From Octopus vulgaris (taxonomy: Eukaryota): 64,000 nt of DNA. Positions 3,921 to 62,826 of this stretch are shown piece by piece. Location: contig OX597815.1 in the NCBI GenBank assembly GCA_951406725.2, forward strand, positions 96,472,001 through 96,536,000, written 5' to 3'. The notes under the pieces were generated by a model that saw only the letters and a list, made by a program, of their open reading frames with translations, had not been told where the DNA came from and ran no database searches. Both the position numbers and the translations under genes were made by a program. The stretch's first letter is position 1; each line of letters begins with the position of its first letter.

Positions 3921-4687
3921 CAATAAAAGAATGTTGCTTACAAGTGTATATGCATGCTTTCAAACATGCACACACAGGTATGAAGTTTCTATTCGTTTGT
4001 GTTGTATTTGAATTAAATTAGTCATTTGTGCATTTAATGTTTTGAATTGTTGATAATGGCGCAATTTAACATCAGATGGCGAAATACTGCAAAATATTTT
4101 GACCGTTGTGCTACGGATACTGCCAGCACGTCGCCTTATGATACACACACACACATTTATGTAGAAAGTTGAAAAGTAACACACTTGTTGATATGTATAA
4201 GGAAAATAAGAAAAGGTAGATGCTAACATAATTTTATCACGAAATACATTTTGTATTAGTTTCAATCTTTAAATAGGAACAGTAATTAAATCGAAGAAAA
4301 AATAAAATGAAATGTTTTCCAAATATTTCCATAGTCTTCAAGTACGTAGGACATATTCCTTTTTTCTGTCTTTCACTCGGTTTTCCTTTGTAAGTGCTCA
4401 GTAGACTGTAGAAGATCTGAAAACACTTCAGAACCAACATTTCTTTGCACCCATAAAGTCTATTTTTTACGGATCTGCTACTATCTACCGACGCTTTAAA
4501 AAGGAAAGGTAGAGAGGCAGAAAAATTGTTCTACTTATTTGAAGACTGGGGAAATATTTGCAAAGCATAACATTAATCTTTTCCTGTTTTTGCTCTTATT
4601 TGAAAAAAATCAAAAAGATTGAAACCCATACAAAATGTATATCATGATAAGATTATTTTCGCCTCTTCTCCCTTGTCCTATTCTACT

Positions 4688-4884
<197 letters not shown>

Positions 4885-9319: not shown

Positions 9320-10141
9320 CAGTAGTTTTATTTTTATTTTTATAGCGTGCTTTCACTTCACTACCGAGCGCAGCTCTGTGTGCCTTGGGTATGTGCTGTG
9401 ATTTGTTGTGATGCTCTGATGGTTATTGTATGGAAAGTGTTCTGCGTAGGATGTGGGCAGTGCCTAGTAGTGCAATTTTCTGTATGTTATATGTGTTTGT
9501 AAGTCCTGGTGTTTTTGTTATGTATTTGTCTGAATATTTTTTTATCATGCCTAATGCACCTACTATGATAGGAATTGTTTCTGTTTTCAGATTCCACATT
9601 CTAGTTACCTCTATTTCCAGGTCTTTGTATTTTGAGAGTTTCTCCATTTCTTTTAGAGACACGTTGTCATCTGCCGGTATTGATACATCAATTAAAAAGC
9701 ATTTTTTTTCTTCATGATCTCTGACAACTATATCTGGTCTATTGGCCTTAATTTCTCTATCTGTGTGTATCGGCATATCCCAGAGTATGGTTGCTTTCTC
9801 GTTTTCTGTGACCTTTTCTGGTGTGTGCCTATACCATCTTTTTTCTGTTGTTATTCCATAATGTTGGCATAGCTTCCAATGTATGTAGGTTCCAACTCTG
9901 TCATGTCTGTGAATATATTCCTTCTTAGCCAGGACTGGGCAGCTAGAGATAATATGATTTATTGTTTCTTGTCCATCTCCACATATTCTGCAGTTACTTG
10001 TAATATTACTTTTCATTACATGTTTTTGGTAATTTCTGGTGGGGAGGCTTTGGTCTTATGCTGCAATTAAAAGTCCCTCTGTTTCTGCTTTGAGTCCTGA
10101 GCTTCTCAACCATTGCTGGGATTTTTCTTTATCTATTTCTT
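9320..10141 (-). mobile_element. 5'-truncated R4/Dong-type RLE non-LTR retrotransposon (family A, young copy)
   Basis: Intact C-terminal coding region with CCHC knuckle and RLE; 3' end ...AAAACTACTG joined to (AAT)n; (ATT)n on both sides; close paralog of 10345-11170. Confidence 0.92.
9423..10016 (-). CDS. C-terminal fragment of retrotransposon ORF: CCHC zinc knuckle + restriction-like endonuclease (PD-(D/E)xK)
   Basis: CRICGDGQETINHIISSC, YIHRHD, RPDIVV...LIDVSIP...EKLSKYKDL, IIVGALG, QKIALLGTAHILRR. Confidence 0.9.
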   Translation of the reverse strand: MKSNITSNCRICGDGQETINHIISSCPVLAKKEYIHRHDRVGTYIHWKLCQHYGITTEKRWYRHTPEKVTENEKATILWDMPIHTDREIKANRPDIVVRDHEEKKCFLIDVSIPADDNVSLKEMEKLSKYKDLEIEVTRMWNLKTETIPIIVGALGMIKKYSDKYITKTPGLTNTYNIQKIALLGTAHILRRTLSIQ

Positions 10142-10146
10142 CTTCT

Positions 10147-10344
<198 letters not shown>

Positions 10345-11294
10345 CAGTAGTTTTATTTTTATAACGTGCTTTTACTTCACTACCGAGCGCAGCTCTGTGT
10401 GCCTTGGGTATGTGCTGTGATTTGTTGTGATGCTCTGATGGTTCCTGTATTGAAAGTGTTCTGCGTAGGATGTGTGCAGTGCCTAGTAGTGCAATTATCT
10501 GTATGTTATATGTGTTTGTAAGTCCTGGTGTTTTTGTTATGTATATGTCTGAAAAAATTTCTATCATGCCTAATGCACCTACTATGGTAGGAATTGGTTC
10601 TTTTTTTAGATTCCACATTCTAGTTACCTCTATTTCCTGGTCTTTGTATTTTGAAAGTTTCTCCATTTCTTTTAGAGATAAGTTGTCATCTACTGGTACT
10701 GATACATCAATTAGTAATCATTTTTTCTTCATGATCTCTGACAACTATATTTTGGTCTGTTGGCCTTAATTTCTCTATCTATGTGTATTGGCATATCTCA
10801 GAGTATGGTTGCTTTCTCGTTTTCTGTGACCTTTTCTGGTGTGTGCCTATACCATCTTTTTTCTGTTGTTATTCCATAATGTTGGCATAGCTTCCAGTGT
10901 ATGTAGCTCCCAACTCAGTGGTGTCTGTGAATATATTCCTTCTTAGCCAGGACTGGGCAGCCAGAGATAATATGATTTATTGTTTCTTGTCCATCTCCAC
11001 ATATTCTGCAGTTACTTGTTATATATCTTTTCATTACATGTTTTTGGTAATTTCTGGTGGTGAGGCTTTGGTCTTGTGCTGCAATTAAACATCCCTCTGT
11101 CTCTGCTTTGAGTCCATGATGGGGCATCGTTTTATCTCAACCACTGCTAGGATTTTTCTTTGTCTATTTCTTTTGCATTTTGTTTAGTCCAGTACTTGCC
11201 ATGATGGGGCATCGTTTTCTTGCCATCGTTTTATCATAGTCCGTTGCTGTTCTAGTTTTAGTTTGGATTTCATTTGCTTTATAGCTTCTGTTGT

Positions 11295-11417
11295 TTCTTC
11301 TTCTTCTTCTTCTTCTTCTTCTTCTTCTTCTTCTTCTTCTTCTTCTTCTTCTTCTTCTTCTTCTTCTTCTTCTTCTTCTTCTTCTTCTTCTTCTTCTTCT
11401 TCTTCTTCTTCTTCTTC
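11295..11417. repeat. (TTC)n tract, in-frame poly-Glu inside the retrotransposon ORF
   Basis: About 41 units; ORF 11184-11480 reads PPNRY-E(n)-TTEAIKQMK. Confidence 0.95.
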
Positions 11418-11909
11418 ATATCTGTTAGGTGGTATGATTTCTTGTTTGTATTTGTCAGCTTCCTTAAATACTGAGAACAATTTTTTGTTTTGCTCGTGTT
11501 TTGCCGCTATTTGTATCAGTTTTCATTGCTTCTGATGTAGGTATTTTTGCAGTATATGGTAGTTATTTTATAGTAGTTTTCCAGCTTTATAAGGCTTCTG
11601 CCACCTTCTATACGTTGTATATATAGCCTTTCTATGTCAGATTTTGGGTGATGCATCCTAGATACTGTTATTATTTTTCTTGTTTTCCTATCTATTTTGG
11701 TTAGTTCATTTAGCGTCGAGTTAAGGATATTATAGCCGTAACTTATAACTGGGACGGCTAAAGTCTTAATACCTATTATCTTGTTTTTAGCATTGAGCTC
11801 TGTTTTAGTATTGATCTGACTCTTTTTATATTTTCTCTTTCATTTGTGTGTGTTGTGTCTTATCTAGTTCATGTATTCCTACTTATTTGTAAGTTTGGCT
11901 TTGGTCTAA

Positions 11910-12695
11910 TTATTTTGTTTCATTGGTTTTATCTAGTGTGATGTTGCTACTCTTAACTAGTTTTCCTTTTTTCAGGGTTACTTTGGCGTATTTCTCTAAT
12001 GCAAATTTTATAATTATGTCTTTGGTAAATCCATGAATAGTCTTTAGTAGTGTTTCCAGCTGTTTGTCATTTGTAGCGTAGAGTTTTAGGTCATCCATAT
12101 ATAAAAGGTGGCTGATTGTTTTGCCGTAACATTTGTATCCGCATCCAGTTCTGTTTAGCATATCAGATAGAGGTGACAGTGCCAAGCAGAAAATGAGTGG
12201 AGAGAGCGTGTCTCCCTGGAATAATCCTCTTCTAATGGGGATGGCTTTGGTTTTCACAAGTCCATCTTTTGTTTGGAGCTGTAGCACTGTTTGCCATTTA
12301 TTCATAGAGTGTCCTATGTACTTTATAATTGTTGGTACTACTTTGTTCATGGCTTGTGATTCGAGAATCCATGTGTGGGGGATGCTATCAAACGCCTTTT
12401 TGTAATCGATCCAGGCCATACTGAGGCATTTCTTCTTTCTGTGGCTGTCTTCAGTTATGGCTTCATTGATCATTAGTTGATCTTTACAACCATATGAGCC
12501 TTTGCGGCATCCTTTCTGCTCTTCTGGAAACAGGTTGTTTTCGTCCAGGTGCTTGTTCAATATTTGCGATATTACTGCAGTAAATGCCTTGTACATTGCT
12601 GGGAGACAAGTTATAGGCCTGTAGCTTTCTGGTTGTGCTGTCTCATTTGATTTGAGAATTAAGATGGTTTTCCCCTTCGTGAGCCATTCGGGCAT
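11910..12695 (-). pseudogene. Reverse transcriptase domain fragment (R4/Dong-type)
   Basis: YRPITCL, EEQKGCRKGSYGCKDQL, WIDYKKAFDSIPH, GLFQGDTLSPLIF, HLLYMDDLKL. Confidence 0.93.
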
Positions 12696-14112
12696 TGTCT
12701 CTGGCTCTGCCAGTATGTTGTTAACATGTTGTATTTGCGGAGTATTTTTGTTTTCTTTTTGTTGCGCAGTAGCGTTGATTGTCTACTGATTTCATTAAGA
12801 ATTGACAGATCTTTTCTCATTTTTTGTATTTTGTTTCGGATGTTAGCTATCCACAGGGCTTGTTTGGGTGGTGGTACTCCTGTTTGGATGGGTTTGAGTG
12901 AGCATCCAGCTTCTTTTGTGGCTCCAGTGGCTGCTGCGTATACTAAGTCATTTAGCTCAGTGATATCGCTTTTTGTTTCAGTGGCTATTAGTTCCGTGAC
13001 GGCTAGGTTTATGTTGTTTATAATTGATGTTGTTGTTTTGTCTATTTTGATTTTTGGTTTTCAGTTCTATGATTATTCTAGTTTTTATAGTTTCATAATT
13101 AGGCTCCCCTTCGTTGTTTCCAGGTTTTAGATTTGTGTCGGTTTCTATCTCATCCGTATGTTTGTTTGTCGTGTTTTAGCTTGCTGTTTGTCGTGTATTA
13201 TTATGTATCCTTACGATCTGGGGTTTTTGTTACATCGTTTTTGTTGGAAATGTTACGTTTGGCTTCATGTTTTACTGTTTCAGTGTTTATATTATTTGGC
13301 AATTTTGTGTAGCTTCTATCTACATTTTTCTGATGTATTTTTTCTTTTAAATGTTCTATTTCTATTTCTGATATTTTTTGCGTTGAGAATATATCTCCGT
13401 ATATTTGCTAGTTTATTAGGGTTCATTGTTGTATCCAGGTCTTTATTTATGTTATTTTTCTTCCATATTTTGTATGTATGTGTTGTATTTTCGTTCTTTG
13501 GGTAGAGCACTGCTGTAAATTAAGCGTGTAGGATAGAAATGTATTCCTCACGTGTCCATTTATGTCTTTTGGGTTTTAGTTGCGGCTCATGAGGAACAAC
13601 GCCCGGCCCATTATTTTCACGGACGTCATTTTCGTAGGGTACCGGTCCGTTCATTTCTGTTGTCACGTTGTTTTGCACGTGTAGTTTTTGTACATTTTAT
13701 GTTGTAAGTTTACAGTACGTACTTCCCGATTGTTATTCTTGGGTTGAATAATACCGGTATTATTTAATTTATTCGTAGTTTTTTTTTTGTACATGGTGTT
13801 TGGGGCCGCAGATGATCTGGTGTTGATGGATCGTAATGTATCAAGCATGTTTACATGTGTTGTGTTAGAGGTGGAAATGATATCGAGTTAAAATACATCA
13901 TTTCGTTTTGAAAATAGTAATAAATTTCAATGAGTATTATTTACTCGGGCATAGTCCAATCCTTTGTCAGTCATTTTTTCGCTCCATGCGATGTCGTTGT
14001 TTTCGATGTTTGTGGATAGATTTCGGAGCACTGTTTTATCGCTCTCACATGTGTAACGTCCCCGGTGTAATCTACGTCCCCGGTGTAATCTCACGTCCCC
14101 GGTGTAATCTCG

Positions 14113-14113
<1 letters not shown>

Positions 14114-36736: not shown

Positions 36737-37155
36737 TAAGAAAATAGAGAGATTTAATGGATATAAATTGCTTACAATTGTTTAAATTCACACTCAATAC
36801 AAAATACAAGACATATATAAAAAAGTAAGCTTGCATTTTGAAAGTTTTGAGCGAAGTATCATGAGGCTAAAGGACATTAAGAAAGTTAGATGCTCATCGG
36901 CTTAAAAATTCCAACATATTCTGTTGATCAGTTTAGACACCCCAACTGAGTTTTTGGGAGTATCAAAGTCGATCAACATGTAGCTTCGTTGCTGTCCTTT
37001 TTCCCTGGTGATATTTTACTCAAAAGTTTCAAAAAACCGACCTATCTTTTGATATCTGTTTTCTAATTTGTATTGAGTATGAATTAAAACAATTTCAGGC
37101 AATATTAATTAATTAATAAATCAAATTATATCCATTAAATCTCTTCGTTTTCTTA
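36737..37155. mobile_element. Diverged fold-back element / MITE (~200 bp imperfect arms) next to (TA)n
   Basis: GAGATTTAATGGATATAA...CTCAATACAAA...TTTTGAAAGTTTTGAG on the left mirrors CTCAAAAGTTTCAAAA...TTTGTATTGAG...TTATATCCATTAAATCTC on the right. Confidence 0.75.
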
Positions 37156-37441: not shown

Positions 37442-37762
37442 GATTAACTGTTGAACTGGACGGACGTCTATTTGTTTCTCTCCCGAGTCAGTAGCAAGCT
37501 ACACAGCTTCAAAACTAACTGACCTTAAATATATATATATTTGTAACCACGTGTTTGCCTACAAACCCGTAAGTACGTTTTCATTTAACTACAAATTGTT
37601 ATATACACCTGTTTTTCTTTTAATATCCTCAAACAACCAAATAATCAAAAACTCACACCCTTAAGAGAGAACATTTATATATATATACACTTCTTTAACT
37701 CCCAAGAAAGAATATATATATTTTCAAAAATCAAAAGGAAAACAAACAAAAGAAAAACAAAC

Positions 37763-39739
37763 ATGACTAACTTGCAGGCCTGCAACAGACGAAATTGGTC
37801 TGATAACGAAATTGATGTTTTAATAAACACATGGCTCTCTCTTTCCCAAACAGAAAATCTAAATGTCTTGTGTTTGAATGAGATTGCCGAAAAAACATCA
37901 CAAGTGGTCAACACACGATCCGTCAAACAGATTCGTAGCAAGTTGAAACATATCGAAGTATCTTTCAAACTGATAAGAGGCCATTATGAAAAGCTTCTAC
38001 ATATTTTCACAGTTCAAGAACAACAACAGCTAGAAAATCAGCAGCCACAACAACAACAACAACAGAATGAGCCACTCCTGGTTCCCAACACAATGGCTGA
38101 CCCTGACATCGGTCAGGCACAACAACAACAACAACAGCCACAGCAACAAGAACAACAACAGCCACTCCTCAACTCTAGCTTACTAGACGATTCACTAAAT
38201 GCCAGTATCTTTTCACCGCTCTCACAGCAACCACCACAATTATCATCATCATCATCACCACCGCTGCCACCATCGTCTTCTATCACCAAAAATACCAACA
38301 GAAAACCAAATAAGAAACCACTGCCCTCTTCCCCCACATCACCACCTCAATACTACTGCAGTAACAAAAACTTAAAGAAACATAGGAAGCAGAATGCGCC
38401 CCCCACGGCACAAACAAGAAATCCCCAAATATGCCGCTATTCACTGCGCCAGAGACTCTGCACAAATAGTGACTGCATCTTCACGCATCTACCCGGCACT
38501 AGACGCACTACTGGCCAAGGCCAAAGCACGCATCCCACAATAACATCAACACCACCAAATAGTAAATCGAAATTCAAAACACACACAACTCGGAGTCCCA
38601 AAATCTGCCGGTATTCCCAACGTGAGAGAACATGTCTACTGAGTGACTGTCCCTTCACTCATCTTCCAGGGACCCGACGCACAAACAGAAACGGGGCCTC
38701 AAGCCAACACACAAACCTGAATAACAATAAAAATAGAAACACACCATGCTGCAGTAATGCTGGTCCAGTCTTTTCAGGAAGACACAAAAACAACAACAAC
38801 AAAAGTGGAAACTACAACCCTATCCAACAGTGCAACCACACCTCCAGCCAAAAACTGCTCCCTAAGCAGGAAAATTCTTTTAGCCATGTTGAACATGGCA
38901 AAAGAGATACACAAAAACATTCTAGCCATCACTCAACACCATCCTATGCTATTACCCCAGTGCACCAACTCCCCACATTGCTGCCACTAACACACACAAA
39001 AAATCCAAGCCCCCTGCAACAGTCAAAACCAGCCACTACACTAACCTCCACATTCCTACTCAATGCACAAGGTGTCAGCCCTTCCATCAATGCACAAAAA
39101 TGGAAGGTCCAATTCATTGAAGACTGGGTTGGTAACCATTCACACCACATCCCTTTCTTCATTCTCACTGAGACCCACCTTGACAACTCCCACTTGGAAG
39201 CCGAAGTGAGAGTGAAGAATTTCACAACCATCCGCGCGGATCGTATCGGCAGGAGGAAGGGTGGAACTGCCATTTTCCTGCATGATTCATTTACGGCAGA
39301 TGGAAATAGTATATTCTCCAACGGCTACTGTGAATCAGTCACCGTGCACAACAAAGCCAATGATCTGACAGTAATTGGGCTCTATAGGCCGCCCCAAACA
39401 CCCATACTGTGCTTTAAAGAATGCCTCAACAGCATTAAGTGCTTTATTCAACAGTGCCATTCTAGCAACATACTCATGATGGGAGACTTCAATCTACCCT
39501 GTGTTGACTGGACTACAAACTGTTTGAAACCAAGCACTCCCGCCTCAACCGCTGACAAAGAAGCAGCAGAGTCACTTTTCGACTTTACGAATGAGTTTTT
39601 CTTGTCCCAACTTGTCCTTGCACCAACAAGACATCAGAACATTTTGGACCTAGTGTTTAGTAACCACACTAACACTATACATAACGTTACAGTGGAAAAA
39701 CCCTTCTTTCAGACCATGACATGGTTCTCTGTAACATGA
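37763..39739 (+). CDS. LINE protein N-part: Myb/SANT-like domain, polyQ/Ser-Pro linker, two CCCH zinc fingers, APE endonuclease
   Basis: RNWSDNEIDVLINTW...RSVKQIRSKLKHI; C-x8-C-x4-C-x3-H at 38432-38488 and 38606-38662; APE motifs LLNAQG, LTETHL, RADR..RKGGTAIF, LYRPP, MGDFNLP, PTR..NILDLVF; the terminal SDH lies in the -1 frame at 39709-39717. Confidence 0.9.
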   Translation: MTNLQACNRRNWSDNEIDVLINTWLSLSQTENLNVLCLNEIAEKTSQVVNTRSVKQIRSKLKHIEVSFKLIRGHYEKLLHIFTVQEQQQLENQQPQQQQQQNEPLLVPNTMADPDIGQAQQQQQQPQQQEQQQPLLNSSLLDDSLNASIFSPLSQQPPQLSSSSSPPLPPSSSITKNTNRKPNKKPLPSSPTSPPQYYCSNKNLKKHRKQNAPPTAQTRNPQICRYSLRQRLCTNSDCIFTHLPGTRRTTGQGQSTHPTITSTPPNSKSKFKTHTTRSPKICRYSQRERTCLLSDCPFTHLPGTRRTNRNGASSQHTNLNNNKNRNTPCCSNAGPVFSGRHKNNNNKSGNYNPIQQCNHTSSQKLLPKQENSFSHVEHGKRDTQKHSSHHSTPSYAITPVHQLPTLLPLTHTKNPSPLQQSKPATTLTSTFLLNAQGVSPSINAQKWKVQFIEDWVGNHSHHIPFFILTETHLDNSHLEAEVRVKNFTTIRADRIGRRKGGTAIFLHDSFTADGNSIFSNGYCESVTVHNKANDLTVIGLYRPPQTPILCFKECLNSIKCFIQQCHSSNILMMGDFNLPCVDWTTNCLKPSTPASTADKEAAESLFDFTNEFFLSQLVLAPTRHQNILDLVFSNHTNTIHNVTVEKPFFQTMTWFSVT

Positions 39740-41835
39740 AATTCCACCAGCCGAAAGCTAATCCTAGTGACCTTCCTCCAGCCCACCCATTTGACAACAT
39801 GGATCTCCATAAAGCCAACTGGGATGCAATCAGGAACGAGCTATCAAATGTTGACTGGTCCTTTACACATACACACATCTCCACCAACCATAAAACATCT
39901 TGGCAGATCTTTGTAGACACCGTCACAGACATATGTGCAAAACACTCCCCACCAAGACCTGTGAACAAAAAGTGCAGAATCCCCCAAAACAGAAAAACCA
40001 TTATCAGAAAAATAAAAAGAACAAACAAAAAAATTAACAAACTAAAGTACTGCCAACAGCAACACACACATTCGACGGCTATCGCACTGCTTGAATCCAA
40101 AAAATATAACCTCCAACAATGCATGAAGTCCCTCATCAATAACCAAAGATCAGCTGAGGAGAAGTGGGCCATTGAAAAAATCAAACTCAACCCCAAAGTG
40201 TTCTTTTCATTTGCGAGGAAACGCAGGGTCACTGTCTCCACTGTAGGCCCTCTAATTGACGAAACTGGCACTCTCCAAGATAATGCCAAATCCATGGCCG
40301 AGATACTGCAGAAACAATACTGCTCTGTTTTCAGCAATCCTGATATGGCCGATCTGGGCTGTATCAGTGATGTCAACCCCCAACACACTATATCGGACAT
40401 AACGTTTAGTGCCCCTGATGTCTTAGCGGCGATAAACGAAATAAAACACAATTCAGCAGTAGGCCCCGATAGGTTCCCTGCTTGTGTCCTGAAGGTGTGT
40501 CGACACCAACTTGCATCTCCCCTTGCTAATCTGTGGAGAAACTCACTGGATGCTGGCTATATTCCAAAAAACCTTCTGTCCCAGTCTGTTGTCCCAGTTT
40601 TCAAAAAGGGAAACAAGTCCCTTGCAGTGAATTACCGTCCGATCTCACTCACCTCTCATATCATCAAGGTATTTGAGAGGGTGGTGAGATCTCAAATAAC
40701 CCAATTTCTGGAAAGCAACAGACGGCTGATCTCCAACCAACATGGGTTCCGTAATGGAAGGGACTGCCTAACGCAGCTCCTGCATCACTTTGAGGACATT
40801 TTGAGAGCTTTGGGAGAGGGCTCCAACACCGATGTCATCTACCTTGATTTCAGTAAGGCCTTCGACAGGGTCGATCACAAGATCCTATTGAAAAAACTAT
40901 CCAACATTGGTGTCTCTGGAAAGTTACTGAAATGGATTAAGTGTTTCCTGACAGACAGATCTCAACATGTTGTAGTTGAAGGGGTAAAATCAAGCCCAGC
41001 CAAAGTCAGTAGTGGCGTTCCGCAAGGCACTGTGCTGGGCCCACTTCTTTTCATCATTTACATTAATGACATTAATGACATCATCAAGCACAGCAACATA
41101 AAAATCTTTGCAGATGACTCCAAGCTACAGAAGGTCATAAATGAGGCGAGTGACCGGACATGCCTTCAGTCAGATCTACTGGCTGTTATCCAATGGGCAG
41201 AAAAAAACAATATGCTGCTGAACGAGGATAAATTTGAGCTAATCCACTTTGGAAAAGAGGATGCCCTGAAACTCCCATACTCCCTTCCTTCAGGTGAAAC
41301 TCTCGCGGCGTCCAACAACATCAGAGACTTGGGAGTAATTGTGGACAACAACGTAAGCTGGGCCACTCATATAAACACCAAAGTTGACATGGCCCGCAGA
41401 ATGTGTTCCTGGATTCTCAGAACTTTCCAGTCGAGAGATATCCACACCATTATCCTTCTCTTCTCCACTTTTGCCCGACCCCACCTTGAATACTGTTGTC
41501 CACTGTGGTCTCCCCACACAATACAAGGTATCAAAAAAGTCGAAGCACCTCAAAGGGCAATCACAAAAAAGATAGATGGCATGACAGGCCTCGACTATTG
41601 GGGTCGACTAGAAAAGCTAAAACTCTATTCTCTCCAACGTCGTCGTGAGCGCTACATCATCTGCATGATGTGGAAAATATTCCATCAGCATTGCCCAAAT
41701 GATGTTGGCATCACCTTTAAGGTACATCCAAGGCTTGGGCCCCGTGCCATCCGCCCAAAACAAAAATCGCACTCTCATCTCATAACAACAATACGGCACA
41801 ATTATTTCACCTCAATTGGCCCCGCCTCTCTTTAA
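39721..41835 (+). CDS. LINE reverse transcriptase (continues after a 1-nt shift to the stop at 41995)
   Basis: GPDRFP, YRPISLTS, NQHGFR, YLDFSKAFDRVDH, SGVPQGTVLGPLLF, IFADD, RDLGVI, LQRRRERY; shifted tail LFNITPKHIK...FKKSLDRFLQEIPDKP...NSLLEW. Confidence 0.95.
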   Translation: MVLCNMKFHQPKANPSDLPPAHPFDNMDLHKANWDAIRNELSNVDWSFTHTHISTNHKTSWQIFVDTVTDICAKHSPPRPVNKKCRIPQNRKTIIRKIKRTNKKINKLKYCQQQHTHSTAIALLESKKYNLQQCMKSLINNQRSAEEKWAIEKIKLNPKVFFSFARKRRVTVSTVGPLIDETGTLQDNAKSMAEILQKQYCSVFSNPDMADLGCISDVNPQHTISDITFSAPDVLAAINEIKHNSAVGPDRFPACVLKVCRHQLASPLANLWRNSLDAGYIPKNLLSQSVVPVFKKGNKSLAVNYRPISLTSHIIKVFERVVRSQITQFLESNRRLISNQHGFRNGRDCLTQLLHHFEDILRALGEGSNTDVIYLDFSKAFDRVDHKILLKKLSNIGVSGKLLKWIKCFLTDRSQHVVVEGVKSSPAKVSSGVPQGTVLGPLLFIIYINDINDIIKHSNIKIFADDSKLQKVINEASDRTCLQSDLLAVIQWAEKNNMLLNEDKFELIHFGKEDALKLPYSLPSGETLAASNNIRDLGVIVDNNVSWATHINTKVDMARRMCSWILRTFQSRDIHTIILLFSTFARPHLEYCCPLWSPHTIQGIKKVEAPQRAITKKIDGMTGLDYWGRLEKLKLYSLQRRRERYIICMMWKIFHQHCPNDVGITFKVHPRLGPRAIRPKQKSHSHLITTIRHNYFTSIGPASL

Positions 41836-54279: not shown

Positions 54280-54689
54280 AGTGTATAATCATGAAATAAA
54301 AAAGACGAGATGTAGGAACAAACACAACAGTCAACGACACTCACCCTACAAGACCATATCAACTTGGATCAAAAATATAATGCTGTAGGAGAGTGTACCA
54401 CATAAAAAGAGATTCACCACATGGAGTGGCTTTGACAAACATTTCTTAAAACACAACTCGATACATTCAAAGTGTTGATGGACACCAACCCCCAGAAAAC
54501 ACTAACGACTATATGCATTTTTGACATAGACCACTGCTTAAGGTCCAAATGAGATCATGCATGCATTAATTTCAATTGGTATTGGTAACTGCAATATTCC
54601 TTTCCAGGTGAACTGATATCTCACTGTTCAGTGAACACCTCAGAAGTAACCCTTTGTGACTCCTCTGTGAAATCCACAATATTTAGCAT

Positions 54690-55220
54690 GCTGGGACCAT
54701 GAAGTAGCTGCAGAAATAGGGTTTATTCCCGAAGGACATTCATGCTGAAAGAGTTGCTACATTAGGCAATAAAGCTCAAGTTTGTCAATAGTGAAAATGT
54801 AAGCACCTGAATTGAGGAAAAGAAGAAAAATTGTTGAACATGACCAAGTTTGGAAAGTCCTGCACCTCCCACCTACAAGGAAAATATTGATCGCGTTAAC
54901 CACATGCTGGTGCAGGACATGCTATTGATCAAATAACAAGTGCTATTAGCATATCTCCGGAGAGAGTTGAGAATGTTTTGGACAATGTACATGACGAAGG
55001 TTTCTGCTCGGTATATGCCACATTTTCTGACACACACCAAAAAGTGTACTACTCTTATCACATCACGGAAAAATTTGAAATTGTATGAGGCAGATCCAGC
55101 TGGTATTCTGAAACATTTCTAACTCAGGATGAGAGTTAGATTCCTTACTTTGAGCCGGAGACAAAGAGACAATCCATTCAGAATGAATATCCCTTCCTCA
55201 CCTGCTCCAATAAAAGGCCA
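54690..55220 (+). mobile_element. Decayed mariner transposase fragment
   Basis: PKDIHAE.VATLG (HTH), ENIDRVNHML, KVSARYMPHFLT (WVPHxL motif), LYEADPAG..FLTQDES, FEPETKRQSIQ, PSSPAP. Confidence 0.82.
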
Positions 55221-55647
55221 TGGACTTCTAGTTTTCCTATTCAAGTTCTATAGCTCGACCTTTATCTATTTCAGAAGAGGAGCAGAGTACCTCAGTACAT
55301 ACATTTTCAATTTCTTTATTGTTCCTGCTCTTTAATTCCAATCCTCTTCCTGAACCCTCTTCTGTACTCTTTAGTGACTTTCTCTGCAATTTCTCATATT
55401 ACCCTACAGTCTTGCTTGACTTCTGAATATTTGTACCGTTCATTGTTCCACAGCGCTCAGTAGGCGGTGTCTTGTGGTAATTTTCTCGTATTAGAATTTA
55501 AATTCAGGCCTCATTTCATAATTAGCATCGTTGCAAATATGTTATCCTGTGATAATTTTATGCTGCTATCAAATTTTTTTACGACCATTCTTTACCATTA
55601 TCGTTAAAATCATCGTCGTCATCGTCCTCCTCATCAACATCATCGTC

Positions 55648-55928
55648 ATCATTTTCACTACTATATTTATCACGTGTTTTCACCGCACTACTGGGTACAG
55701 CATTAGGCATGTGCTCTGGTTTGTTGTGGTGCTCTTGTTTTCACTGTATTGAAAGTGCTTTACGGAGGAAGCGTGCGAGGCCTAGTGGAGCTATTTTCTG
55801 CATGATATATACATACATTCTTAACTTTTGATGTTTTTGTTATGTATATATCTGAATGTTTTTAATCAAACCTAATGCAGCTATTATTATAGGGACTGTT
55901 TTGTTTTTATGTTCCATATTCATGTTAT

Positions 55929-55964
<36 letters not shown>

Positions 55965-56091
55965 TAGCTTTATTTTTATAGCGTGCTTTCACTTCACTAC
56001 CGAGCGCAGCTCTGTGTGCCTTGGGTATGTGCTGTGATACACAGAGCTGCGCTCGGTAGTGAAGTGAAAGCACGCTATAAAAATAAAGCTA

Positions 56092-56148
<57 letters not shown>

Positions 56149-56433
56149 ATAACATGAATATGGAACATAAAAACAAAACAGTCCCTATAATAATAGCTGC
56201 ATTAGGTTTGATTAAAAACATTCAGATATATAAATAACAAAAACATCAAAAGTTAAGAATGTATGTATATATCATGCAGAAAATAGCTCCACTAGGCCTC
56301 GCACGCTTCCTCCGTAAAGCACTTTCAATACAGTGAAAACAAGAGCACCACAACAAACCAGAGCACATGCCTAATGCTGTACCCAGTAGTGCGGTGAAAA
56401 CACATGATAAATATAGTAACTAGTGAAAATGAT
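55648..56433. repeat. Near-perfect long inverted repeat (arms 55648-56017 and 56039-56433, 21-nt spacer) built from RLE family A 3' ends
   Basis: By eye, the arms differ only by 2 substitutions, one 4-nt indel and (ATT)n length. Confidence 0.95.
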
Positions 56434-56457
56434 TATTATTATTATTATTATTATTAC

Positions 56458-56539
<82 letters not shown>

Positions 56540-56543
56540 TATT

Positions 56544-59055
56544 CTCTTTACACAGTTTCTAACGCTATAGATGTACAACGGTGCCAGCTGTTCACTACCA
56601 GTGAACATCCCTTATTTTTCGAGCATCATCCGGAGTATTCGAGCGGTTCTAAGCAATACTGTTTTCTGCAAGTGCTCTTCCCTAATTGCAGCCCCTATTT
56701 ATTCCAAATACTTTTCAAGATTTCTACTCACTGTTCCCCAAGGCTCCGACAATTATTGGTACTAACACCGCCTATTTCAGTGACAACATATGCTTAACCT
56801 CCAAAGAGAACGTGTCATATCTTTCGACATGTCTTTCTTCCATATCGCATACCTTGTTTTCAGCTGGGCATACTATTTCTATGATACAATATCGTTTCCT
56901 TTATTTCTATCTTAACCTTGTCTGGCTTCCTATTCTCTATCTCATGGTCGTACTGAATCATAAAATCCTATAGGATCTTTGTATTATCATTTTTAGATGA
57001 TGCACTCAGGTTCATGATCTTACTCTATTTTTTGCTGTGTCAAATCCATAGTTGTTGCAAAGTGTCCAATGAGCAATCCTTGCTATATTGTCATCACATC
57101 TCTTGTATTCTTTCTGAGAAAGTGTCGAACACAACATTAGAGCAAAAGAAAGCAACATAGCATGGTAATATTCTTTACGGTTTCACCATTTTGTCCACAC
57201 ATTCTGGACTTATCACTTTCAGATGTGTTCTCTATTCTGTATTTGATGTAATTCCTTCGTAGTACTTGCTCTAGGGCAGCACAGATTAGAGCCACCATTT
57301 TCTGTTTTAAATCACTTTTAGTCATCGATAGCCATCTTGTTTTCTCTCTCTGTTTTATCTTCAACATCCTTACGTAATTGTACATACATTTTTTCTTTAT
57401 CCTGCTATTTTCAGCTTCATTCATTCTCAAGTGCTTGTACAGTGCTTTATCCTTGCAATCTTTCAATCTACACAAGCTTGACCTACTTACTTCTAATAAT
57501 AGCGGTTCTGTTGCATTTTGCACGTGCCATGCTATGTTGCTTTCTTCTGCTCTAATGCTGTGTTCGATTTAATAAGTCTTCTTTCCCCACATTTTTCCTG
57601 GTCCATACAGTCTGTCTGTGTCACTTTTTCGATGAAGTGACCCATATCTAGTTAGCAATTTCCCTGTCTTTCTGTCAAAGCTGTTAAGTTCGTCTGCTGG
57701 CCATGCGATTACCCCTACTCTATATCTAAGGAGTGAAACCGCCCAGGTGTTGGTAGTTTCAATCTTATTCCGTCCGTTTAAATTCAACTTGAGGTTCTTT
57801 GCTAGTACTTTACATTAATTTTTTCTGTCATTTCTTTCTCCATCACTTTATCCATTTCCAATATCCCTAAGTACTTATAACCCGTCTTTTCTGTCTGCTT
57901 CATTACCTCCCCCGACGGTATCGTTAGCCCGTTCATACATTTGATTTTGCCGCACTTCAAGACTAATACACCACACTTTTTCAGTCCTAACTCCATTCAG
58001 ATATCAGTACTGAAAGTATACACCGTATCAACGAGGGAATTTACTTGGGATTCATATTTACCAGTTTGAGGTCATCCACGAATAACAAGTGGTTGACTTT
58101 TTGTTGACGGCTTTTGAATACATACTCAGTTTTTCTTTCCGCAGAATCAGTGTTCGTGGTATCATGCACAGTACAAAGATCTGTGGGGATAGACACACTC
58201 CTTCGAAGATACCTTTTCTGATTTCTCTTGTCTCTAAATTTCTTTCATATGTTGTCAGTTCCGTTCTCGTCTTCGCCATAGATTTTCCAAGCAATCGCTT
58301 AACATTTGATGCAATACTAAATTGGATCATAGATTTCATACTACAAGAATGTTGGATCATATAGTAAGTCTTACGATAATCAATCCATGAAATGGCAAAG
58401 TTTTCCTCCTCTTCCAGTCTCTATTTAAAGTTTTGTCTAACAGGAGTTGAGTTGATCCTCTGTACCTCTGCAATTAGGCTTATAACCCCTCTGCTCATGT
58501 GGCAGGACACCATTTTTTCCAGATGTTTGTACATGATTCTGCGAATATTACAGTCAATAATTTCCACAAAAGTTGCAAGCATGATGTCGGCCTGTAACTG
58601 TCTACCGTATTGTCTTTTACGATGTTTTTCAATTGCCAACTACCCTGGTGTTACTTGGTCGACATTTAACATTTGTGTTGTGCAGCTATTCGTGCATGAC
58701 ATTCACCAAATCTTTTTTATCGAGTAGGCTTGAACTTTATCTGGTCCCGGGGCATTCGATTTGCCCATGGTTTTGCAGATTTCCTTCACCTCCCTAACTG
58801 AAATTACTAGTTCTGCCTCTTTTGGAAGTCTACTATTTGTTTCAATTCTTGCAACCATTCAGCATCCTTCATGTGCTCCTTGTCTTTGCTCCAAATGACA
58901 GTTCAAAACCTTTGACTTTCAATGTTGTCTGGTATCAACTTTTCACCTGTATACTCTCCATGTATTTTTTTTTTCGTACAATCACTTTTGATCTACTCTG
59001 AATAACCTATTCTGCTGGTAACCCTTCATCCTATGGTCGCTCGTTTTGCTATCTA
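56544..59055 (-). mobile_element. Degenerate, 5'-truncated R4/Dong-type RLE retrotransposon (family B) within (ATT)n
   Basis: IRKGIFEGVCLSPQIFVLCMIP, GLKKCGVLVLKCGK...YKYLGILE, LNGRNKIETTNTWAVSLLRY...HRKSDTDRLY, RMCGQNGETV, LQKTVLLRTARILR; (ATT)n on both flanks. Confidence 0.9.
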
Positions 59056-61901: not shown

Positions 61902-62826
61902 TGAAGTATATTCTGTTGTGTCTGGGGAAAGTAATTTTCTTCATCGGTAAATATTCCACTTATTTCTTATTTTTCTTTTCCTAAAATTTTCCTACAATAG
62001 TCTTGATTCTGTCCGTTATTTACACTGCGTTTCTTTCTGTTTGTTTGTGCGCATGTGTGTGGGTTAGTGTTTGTGTGTGTGTGTGTGCCTTTGCATGCAT
62101 GTATGTATGTGTGTGTATGTATATATGCATGTGTGTATGTATACATGTATGTGTATGCATATGTATATATGTGCGTGCATATGTATGTATGCAGTCTACA
62201 TATTCATGTGCTTGCACGTCGTGTTTGTGTATTTTCAATGTTTGTGTGTTTGAGCATGTGTTTGTATATGTATGCACCTCTGTCTCCTTGTGTGTGCATG
62301 CCTGTGTGTGTGTGTTTTACAACTATGTACCACGTGTGTCCTTGTGTGGAATAAACTATGTAGCATATGTGCCCTTGGGTGGGGTAAAGTGTATGTGTAT
62401 ATATGGTCATGTGTTTCAGTCTCCATTTAAGTAGGTGTGCTTGTCTTTTCATATAACCTATGCACCTATCCGTCTGTATGTTGATCTGTTTCTATTCATA
62501 TCCATATGCTTACATACATATGCATACACATCCACACACACATGCATACATCTATCTACATAGCAGCCCACTAACTATTCTACTATACCTGTGTATATTG
62601 TGTAACAGACAAGCACACATACGCAAATGGAGACTGAAACACATGACCATATATACAGACACTTTACTCTACAAAAGGGCACATGTGGAGAGACGGGTTC
62701 ACATATGTAGAAATGCACATCCATACATACAAACACGGTACATAGTTACAAAAGACACACACAGACATGCACAAACAAGGAAACAGAAGTGCATACATAT
62801 ACAAACACACGCTCACACACACACAC

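Follow-up and report, generated by a model that had tools for sequence, protein, structure and literature searches.

The window, a stretch of 64,000 nucleotides from Octopus vulgaris, contains a palindrome of 786 bases in which the 3′ end of a retrotransposon is followed, in reverse, by most of itself, by its target repeat and by its flank. How does an insertion come to duplicate the DNA that lies beside it? A preliminary description, made from the sequence alone, read the locus (55648–56433) as a fossil snap-back event: a cDNA primed at a nick in (ATT)n would have stopped early, folded back and been extended along its own strand into flanking DNA.

Anatomy of the palindrome

Self-comparison confirmed the inverted repeat with the coordinates and the order of parts first assigned to it: a left arm at 55648–56017, a 21-nt spacer at 56018–56038 and a right arm at 56039–56433. 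The arms differ by two substitutions (55844 G versus 56233 A, and 55673 C versus 56404 A), by one 4-nt indel, the extra nucleotides of which lie in the right arm at ~56419–56422, 11 nt from its outer end, and by the unequal length of the repeat. On the + strand, the first half consists of the degenerate triplet tail of an old element (55600–55647, − strand), its 5′-truncated, family-A-like 3′ fragment of 284 nt (55648–55931, −), (ATT)10 (55932–55961, +), which would combine target repeat or primer with element tail, and the 77-nt 3′ end of a young family-A element (55962–56038, −), recognized by sequence comparison, whose + strand would correspond to the first-strand cDNA. The spacer lies within this end and would represent the last 21 nt synthesized, as first proposed, and the loop of a hairpin. 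After the turn come 56 nt of inverted young end (56039–56094, +), identical to the left copy down to a subfamily variant base, (AAT)17 as the inverted copy of target repeat and tail (56095–56145, +), and the inverted old flank, which carries the two substitutions and the four extra nucleotides (56146–56433, +). The other half of the target tract, (ATT)36, then resumes in the original orientation (56432–56539, +), with the return junction at 56432–56433. It is the 3′ tail of an older, decayed and related RT element of family B (56540–58420, −), which gives tblastn matches of 27–43% to the family-A ORF, with frameshifts, and a weak RVT_1 match.

The 77-nt end is identical at 70 of 70 positions to 9333–9402 and shows 96% identity over 77 nt to 10345–10421, in keeping with the near-identity reported earlier to the ends at 9320 and 10345. 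The latter belong to the family-A reference copies of the window (9320–14113, −), namely one truncated copy, which reaches ~10141, and one broken copy of nearly full length, which begins at 10345. Elsewhere in the genome, the same 77 nt occur with 100% identity at 19 other places, among 40 candidates scored. The old fragment shows 70–73% identity to young family A and 75–82% to its nearest copies elsewhere in the genome (best 40 of 1,622 scored), and it codes for the last 55 residues of the family-A ORF, at 47%. The right arm, which duplicates 56 of the 77 nt, the repeat and the 284 nt of the old fragment, is taken as the copy because only the left arm runs on into the tail of the old element. 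The extent of the duplication agrees with the ~290 bp of older flank first estimated, but what was called host flank is, judging by its sequence, itself a decayed retrotransposon fragment.

At the center, direct microhomology is absent from the turn, and to this extent the preliminary description stands; it is refined in that the first bases past the turn can also pair with the last bases of the cDNA in a 5-bp hairpin that has a loop of 3 nt. This match was noticed post hoc, and its background is 80 of 4,945 simulated end/landing pairs (1.6%); a comparable match of 6 nt is found at the turn of another locus, L048. At the outer junction, the copy overlaps the (ATT)n tract by 2 nt and ends exactly where the degenerate, repeat-like tail of the old element starts.

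Two other origins were rejected. For a 3′ transduction of the flank, no second locus with the flank was found (best 40 of 1,622 scored), and the left arm passes without a break into older sequence. For a MITE or foldback DNA transposon, the center junction is matched here only, among 40 candidates scored of 343, and the arms are matched above 82% here only, among 40 scored of 1,622.

The window also holds three old degenerate palindromes with arm identities of 65–70% (4198–4689, 36754–37116 and 62253–62813), which are possibly MITE-like or Penelope-derived. A near-intact APE-type LINE at 37589–41835 (+) has two overlapping frames of 716 residues with one frameshift between them, the first with Myb-like, CCCH-like and endonuclease matches and the second with the RT. 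Decayed sequence at 54400–55200 gives the impression of a mariner-type transposase remnant.

The source element

A near-complete family-A copy elsewhere in the genome (L156) carries an ORF with an RT (Pfam RVT_1, E 7.9e-33), followed by CCHC and PD..D motifs, which, by their familiar definitions, we take to be a zinc knuckle and a restriction-like endonuclease (RLE) motif, in this order. The protein aligns in one stretch with solved R2 proteins over residues 40–794 of 813 (E 5e-37); a zf-RVT match lies below the cut-off, and Pfam detects neither a Myb/SANT-like domain nor zinc fingers in the N-terminal 408 residues. From these sequence features, the 77-nt insert is the 3′ end of a (TAA)n-targeting, R2-like (RLE-type non-LTR) retrotransposon, probably of the R4/Dong clade. 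The fit to this clade follows from the combination of an RLE element with a (TAA)n target, as the accessible portions of PMC7998251 describe R4/Dong elements; a Dong element is on record from an octopus (PMC9115989). A Penelope-like inverted insertion, which would bring a GIY-YIG endonuclease, pseudo-LTRs and hammerhead motifs, was rejected: the L156 ORF has no GIY-YIG match, and no Rfam family reaches its gathering score within the window.

A 15-nt 3′ motif of family A is matched exactly at 10,040 places in the genome. An unselected sample was formed by the first 100 matches listed (93 stretches, all in the first 18.6 Mb of contig C1). These 100 copies have a fixed 3′ end and random 5′ truncation, with lengths from 56 to >3,800 nt and a median of ~680 nt. 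The 5′ junction is in view for 93 of them, with a triplet repeat at 69; one of the 93 is a snap-back of 21 nt (L087) and one a twin-priming-like inversion (L097). Full-length copies (10345–14113, −, and L157, L158 and L159) carry a variable number of short G/C-rich tandem units at their 5′ end, beside (TAA)n; those at 14056–14111 are three units of 19 nt.

Presence of the copied arm in independent sequence data

Contigs of four public runs (X1, X2, X18 and X3) were compared with the right arm. In X18 and X3, which belong to two studies with two organism labels and of which at most one could be the assembly's own sample, contig pieces cover 56374–56446 without difference, a segment that takes in the two variants at the outer end as well as the joint with (ATT)n. 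The depth of this segment is 38 in X18 and 34 in X3, and that of the shared arm 77–83 and 72–90, respectively; the contigs of both runs break at 56403, the point of arm divergence. Contigs of X1, X2 and X3 run from the arm into the degenerate triplet tail that marks the left arm as the original. In X1 and X2, a single contig leads from the arm into the left flank, with arm/flank depths of 75.5/66 and 24.4/22.9, respectively. These depths look like those expected for alleles without a second arm, the absence of which contigs cannot prove. The palindrome allele appears to be carried by some individuals and not by others.

The same data bear on the possibility that the palindrome is an assembly artifact, produced by a fold-back chimeric long read or by merged haplotypes. 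The right arm is absent from the contigs of two of the four runs, and the base matching 56233 is C in all four, the assembly's A, found in none of them, being private or collapsed. For the 60-nt center junction, no spanning piece occurs among the contig pieces listed for the four runs, a list swamped by ~2,000 repeat pieces and drawn from contigs that drop rare paths; the linkage of the arms across the center rests on the assembly. A chimeric long read is nevertheless very unlikely as the source, because the outer junction of the right arm is present in the contigs of X18 and X3, with its variants unchanged and with doubled arm depth. In addition, the original orientation resumes after 395 nt, and the same architecture, with the turn at the truncation point of the element, occurs at more than 20 loci. 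We regard an artifact of either kind as extremely improbable. The concern voiced in the preliminary description, that a fold-back chimeric read might be the only support, is countered by the presence of the outer junction of the copied arm in the short-read contigs of X18 and X3, which come from two studies.

The four extra nucleotides of the right arm are missing from the left arm in X1, X2 and X3, and for this reason their interpretation as a plain deletion from the left arm was withdrawn. They resemble the state in 18 old-family relatives, to which two alternative alignments require about equal numbers of changes. Simple copying in cis accounts for them only if a new insertion, an exchange between alleles at a later time or a subsequent loss of the palindrome is added. 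They may have been inserted while the junction was made, or the right arm may have been copied from, or exchanged with, another allele. Alternatively, the left arm may have lost 4 nt after the duplication, the palindrome being later lost from X1 and X2 by slippage between its flanking direct repeats. Slippage of this type is a mechanism by which long inverted repeats are lost.

Recurrence of fold-backs across the genome

A genome-wide search for the 3′ motif facing its own reverse complement within 300 nt returned 11 head-to-head loci among the 10,040 exact motifs, and none with a backward-pattern control. By chance, ~0.06 loci are expected (2.7 random pairs, of which 2.1% of length pairs are short enough). 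Palindrome centers are therefore enriched at the truncation points of this family, as the preliminary description had anticipated. The two pieces abut in all 11 loci, none of which has a microsatellite between the arms. The inverted copy ends inside the element's 3′ end in one case, in the repeat in six and in the flank in four, where it extends over 60 nt (L039), 106 nt (L030), 284 nt (L032, the palindrome described here) and ~320 nt (L034). Fold-backs reaching the 3′ motif amount to ~0.1% of the family-A 3′ ends, and four with flank are known. The tail-to-tail arrangement of the motif occurs at five loci, against 2.7 expected at random; these pairs were rejected as related events, four being separate insertions and the fifth a neighbor of L033.

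Another 10 abutting fold-backs in which the 3′ end is kept came from five internal anchors, and the reverse search with four anchors yielded a single one that loses it (L055; 10 versus 1, p = 0.012). An internal anchor near position 620 and the first family-B anchor had no match in the genome. Related fold-backs were found at one locus of family B and three loci of family C. All these counts are lower bounds, since the gap was limited to 300 nt and long-armed fold-backs from the 3′ motif escape such a search. L052 and L161 (two insertions with a repeat between) were dropped as head-to-head pairs; L050/L051 and L056/L057, which are tandem copies of L049, were dropped from the counts, as was L058 as a reverse-orientation match, being itself a snap-back.

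The orientation bias is relevant to an account in which an ordinary, maybe longer, insertion later suffered a break or blocked a replication fork, after which its end folded and was rejoined to (TAA)n by host repair. Such a process predicts fold-backs in both orientations, contrary to the observed skew. In its favor is L055 (G000:C2:5235534–5235705), where an element without its 3′ 363 nt is followed by an inverted 64-nt piece and then by (ATT)n: this orientation is allowed after insertion, not by TPRT, and it counts against the snap-back account.

Among 19 scored events, the loop measures 5–24 nt in 15. The turn has no overlap in four, 1–3 nt in seven, 6 nt in one and 1–6 untemplated nt in five; the remaining two, L038 and L039, were mis-scored owing to substitutions near the turn. 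At the 5′ junction, 14 of 18 events regain the repeat in the original orientation. Run lengths across the series range from ~20 nt to >400 nt. In loop and junction, the palindrome of the window is a typical member of the series, and its run is one of the longest; the event at 55648–56433 belongs to a rare recurring class and is not a one-off.

Several members of the series have features of their own. L030 and L039 are independent insertions with unlike flanks whose cDNAs stop at the same place (56 nt) and land at the same point (35), a coincidence which suggests a fold-back site favored by sequence. At L049 (G000:C10:41196596–41197221), a 288-nt snap-back unit occurs in three tandem copies, after which comes a long copy that has a deletion inside it. 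In L058 (G000:C14:47290608), the end of a 1,439-nt copy jumps back by ~1,280 nt and, before it joins the repeat, copies 58 nt; L100 and L127 show short tandem duplications of the last-copied element sequence at the 5′ junction. Inspection by eye of the four flank events revealed 8 scattered substitutions in ~1,000 paired sites and no A-to-G hyper-editing of the arms.

Timing and route of the fold-back

The age of the fold-backs relative to the insertions can be gauged from the differences that the arms share. In 15 events, L032 being set aside as its old fragment was aligned instead of the young end, 1,083 duplicated sites hold two shared differences from the family majority, one of them a common variant, and six arm-specific ones; the 1,518 single-copy sites of these events hold 12. 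The scarcity of shared differences points to folding at or near the time of insertion, on a test that comprises eight differences and with exact-match anchors that favor similar arms. Folding long after insertion would predict many shared differences, and the direct return of most events to the target repeat at the 5′ junction does not favor it either. Other observations speak for it: in yeast, plain breaks lead through fold-back, polymerase delta synthesis and end joining to short inverted duplications (PMC11724301, accessible text), (TAA)n tracts beside family-A elements are cut again by later insertions, and X1 and X2 cannot be shown to be free of the 77-nt insert. Taken together, we consider a fold-back formed after insertion unlikely.

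The palindrome probably arose, as its sequence indicates, by snap-back of the cDNA at insertion, with extension through the primer into 284 nt of flank and joining to the other (TAA)n end. The snap-back proposed in the preliminary description is supported by recurrence, orientation bias and timing, the order of events being read from the sequence. The element's endonuclease would have placed its nick in the (ATT)n strand that separates the old fragment from family B, and synthesis of the cDNA would have halted after 77 nt. The free cDNA end would then have turned back 21 nt, possibly through the tight 5-bp hairpin followed by a slip, or a later deletion, between two 5-nt direct repeats. A polymerase would have continued from this end along the cDNA and across the primer repeat, reaching 284 nt into the flank on the primer side. 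The sequence fits the element's RT, acting by strand displacement, as well as a host repair polymerase acting after resection; DNA-directed activity and strand displacement by the R2 RT are announced by the title of a work cited in PMC13000458. At the repeat-like tail of the old element, the copy would have been released and joined to the other (TAA)n end through the 2-nt overlap, and second-strand synthesis would have fixed the product. Both junctions agree with this course: the cDNA end is followed directly by its own reverse complement, and the extended end is joined to the upstream half of the target, with the return to (ATT)36 at 56432 present in X18 and X3. We infer that the palindrome formed during insertion by outward extension of the cDNA, a direction of synthesis that sequence cannot show.

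An identical sequence would result from inward synthesis of the twin-priming type, in which the second-strand (TAA)n end anneals 284 nt out, copies to the nick, jumps to the 3′ end of the RNA, copies 56 nt and joins the 77-nt cDNA head-to-head. This route takes three steps, against two for the snap-back, and predicts neither that the inverted piece ends 5–24 nt inside the first cDNA, as in 15 of 19 events, nor the double fold-backs at L052 and L054, where the copied strand turns again before joining the repeat. L1 twin priming with internal duplication, of median 22 bp, is known (10.1101/2024.08.27.596794, accessible portions), and twin-priming-like products exist in family A itself: L165, with an inverted piece to 383 and a first cDNA of 366, and L097 both display the L1-type pattern, and L033 and L036, with spacers of 168 and 162 nt, are probable further cases. 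At the palindrome, by contrast, the inverted piece ends 21 nt inside the first cDNA and holds 284 nt of single-locus flank. With polarity fixed by the flanks and scoring by eye, the inverted piece lies inside the first cDNA at 19 loci and beyond it at three to four. Both snap-back and twin priming seem, from these junctions, to operate in family A, because L165, L097 and probably L033 and L036 fit twin priming better; for the palindrome of the window, we hold the twin-priming route to be quite unlikely.

A bolder extension of the snap-back reading, which we find doubtful, is that microsatellite-targeting R4/Dong elements might routinely seed long, near-perfect inverted repeats in the germline by strand-displacing snap-back, their own RT passing the primer and entering the chromosome for hundreds of bases ahead of second-strand cleavage, that direct (TAA)n repeats might allow their clean excision, and that some empty alleles, such as those resembling X1 and X2, might be revertants. 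If this were true, the genome would hold a dated natural series of stalled intermediates, from normal insertion to chromosome-breaking fold-back.

Comparison with known systems

Snap-back is known from engineered R2 insertions and fold-backs from human L1; the events described here are natural and inherited, and run through the primer into the flank. The octopus genome keeps a natural record of an insertion accident so far described mainly in cultured or somatic human cells, and offers an inherited series from one natural family, with measurable loop lengths, run lengths and return points; some of its events cross the primer into chromosomal DNA. The way in which non-LTR insertions form their 5′ junction and second strand matters for R2-based gene insertion, and the snap-back would be a specific route from retrotransposition to long inverted repeats. 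The value of the finding is mechanistic rather than functional, because the events are rare and the duplicated DNA is a decayed repeat; the dsRNA and the instability named in the preliminary description would be putative consequences. The comparisons that follow concern the accessible portions of the papers cited.

Family A resembles R4/Dong elements in its RT and restriction-like endonuclease, its (TAA)n target and the lack of detected N-terminal zinc fingers, whereas fold-back junctions are absent from the R4/Dong descriptions found. In the literature searched, chiefly the text of freely available papers, we found no report of inherited snap-backs in R4/Dong, nor of a copy that runs through into the primer-side flank and then returns locally.

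The 5′ junctions of insertions made by R2 protein include snap-backs as a named minor class (PRINT; Zhang et al. 2024, PMC11371274; PMC11331408). The PRINT snap-backs are engineered, occur in the rDNA of cultured human cells and often follow a full-length cDNA, whereas those of the octopus are natural and inherited, follow 5′ truncation and lie at (TAA)n. The text on PRINT, figures aside, does not describe run-through of the primer into flank, as seen at four loci here. When second-strand nicking is lost, R2 insertions turn towards large direct duplications, inverted ones being unmentioned in the portions of PMC13486585 available.

An inverted truncated copy is frequent in Penelope-like elements (Craig et al. 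2021, PMC8557442), which share with the octopus events the head-to-head position of this copy at the 5′ junction and the microsatellite targets. It is a regular feature of these GIY-YIG elements, whereas in family A it is a rare by-product of an RLE element and includes copied host flank. The local foldback inversions of yeast (PMC11724301) are similar in that a hairpin forms, synthesis is short, and the new strand is released and joined to the second end with 0–5 bp of overlap; they differ in that no retrotransposon takes part, in their size, mostly 5–34 bp, and in being driven by 10-bp inverted microhomology.

Among ~1,200 somatic L1 insertions, four (0.3–0.4%) show foldback inversions of 52–220 bp of upstream flank (Nam et al. 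2023, PMC10191854 and preprint). As proposed for the octopus, these are rare inverted duplications in which additional DNA synthesis, starting at the cDNA end, has copied target flank. In those APE-type, somatic events, the flank upstream of the 5′ end is copied in trans, whereas the octopus cDNA would copy itself and then the downstream, primer-side flank. An inversion of this L1 type was rejected for the palindrome, the duplicated flank of which lies beyond the element's 3′ tail.

Self-annealing of L1 cDNA has also been proposed as a source of long-range foldbacks (Mendez-Dorantes et al. 2024, PMC11702581). The likeness is close, in that the TPRT-extended end folds on its own side and the primer-side flank is duplicated in inverted orientation around the cDNA. 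In the L1 case, ligation and replication of the hairpin produce a long-range foldback and a change in copy number, whereas in the octopus synthesis would extend over 60–320 nt and the end be rejoined to the other target end, which gives a small and stable palindrome.
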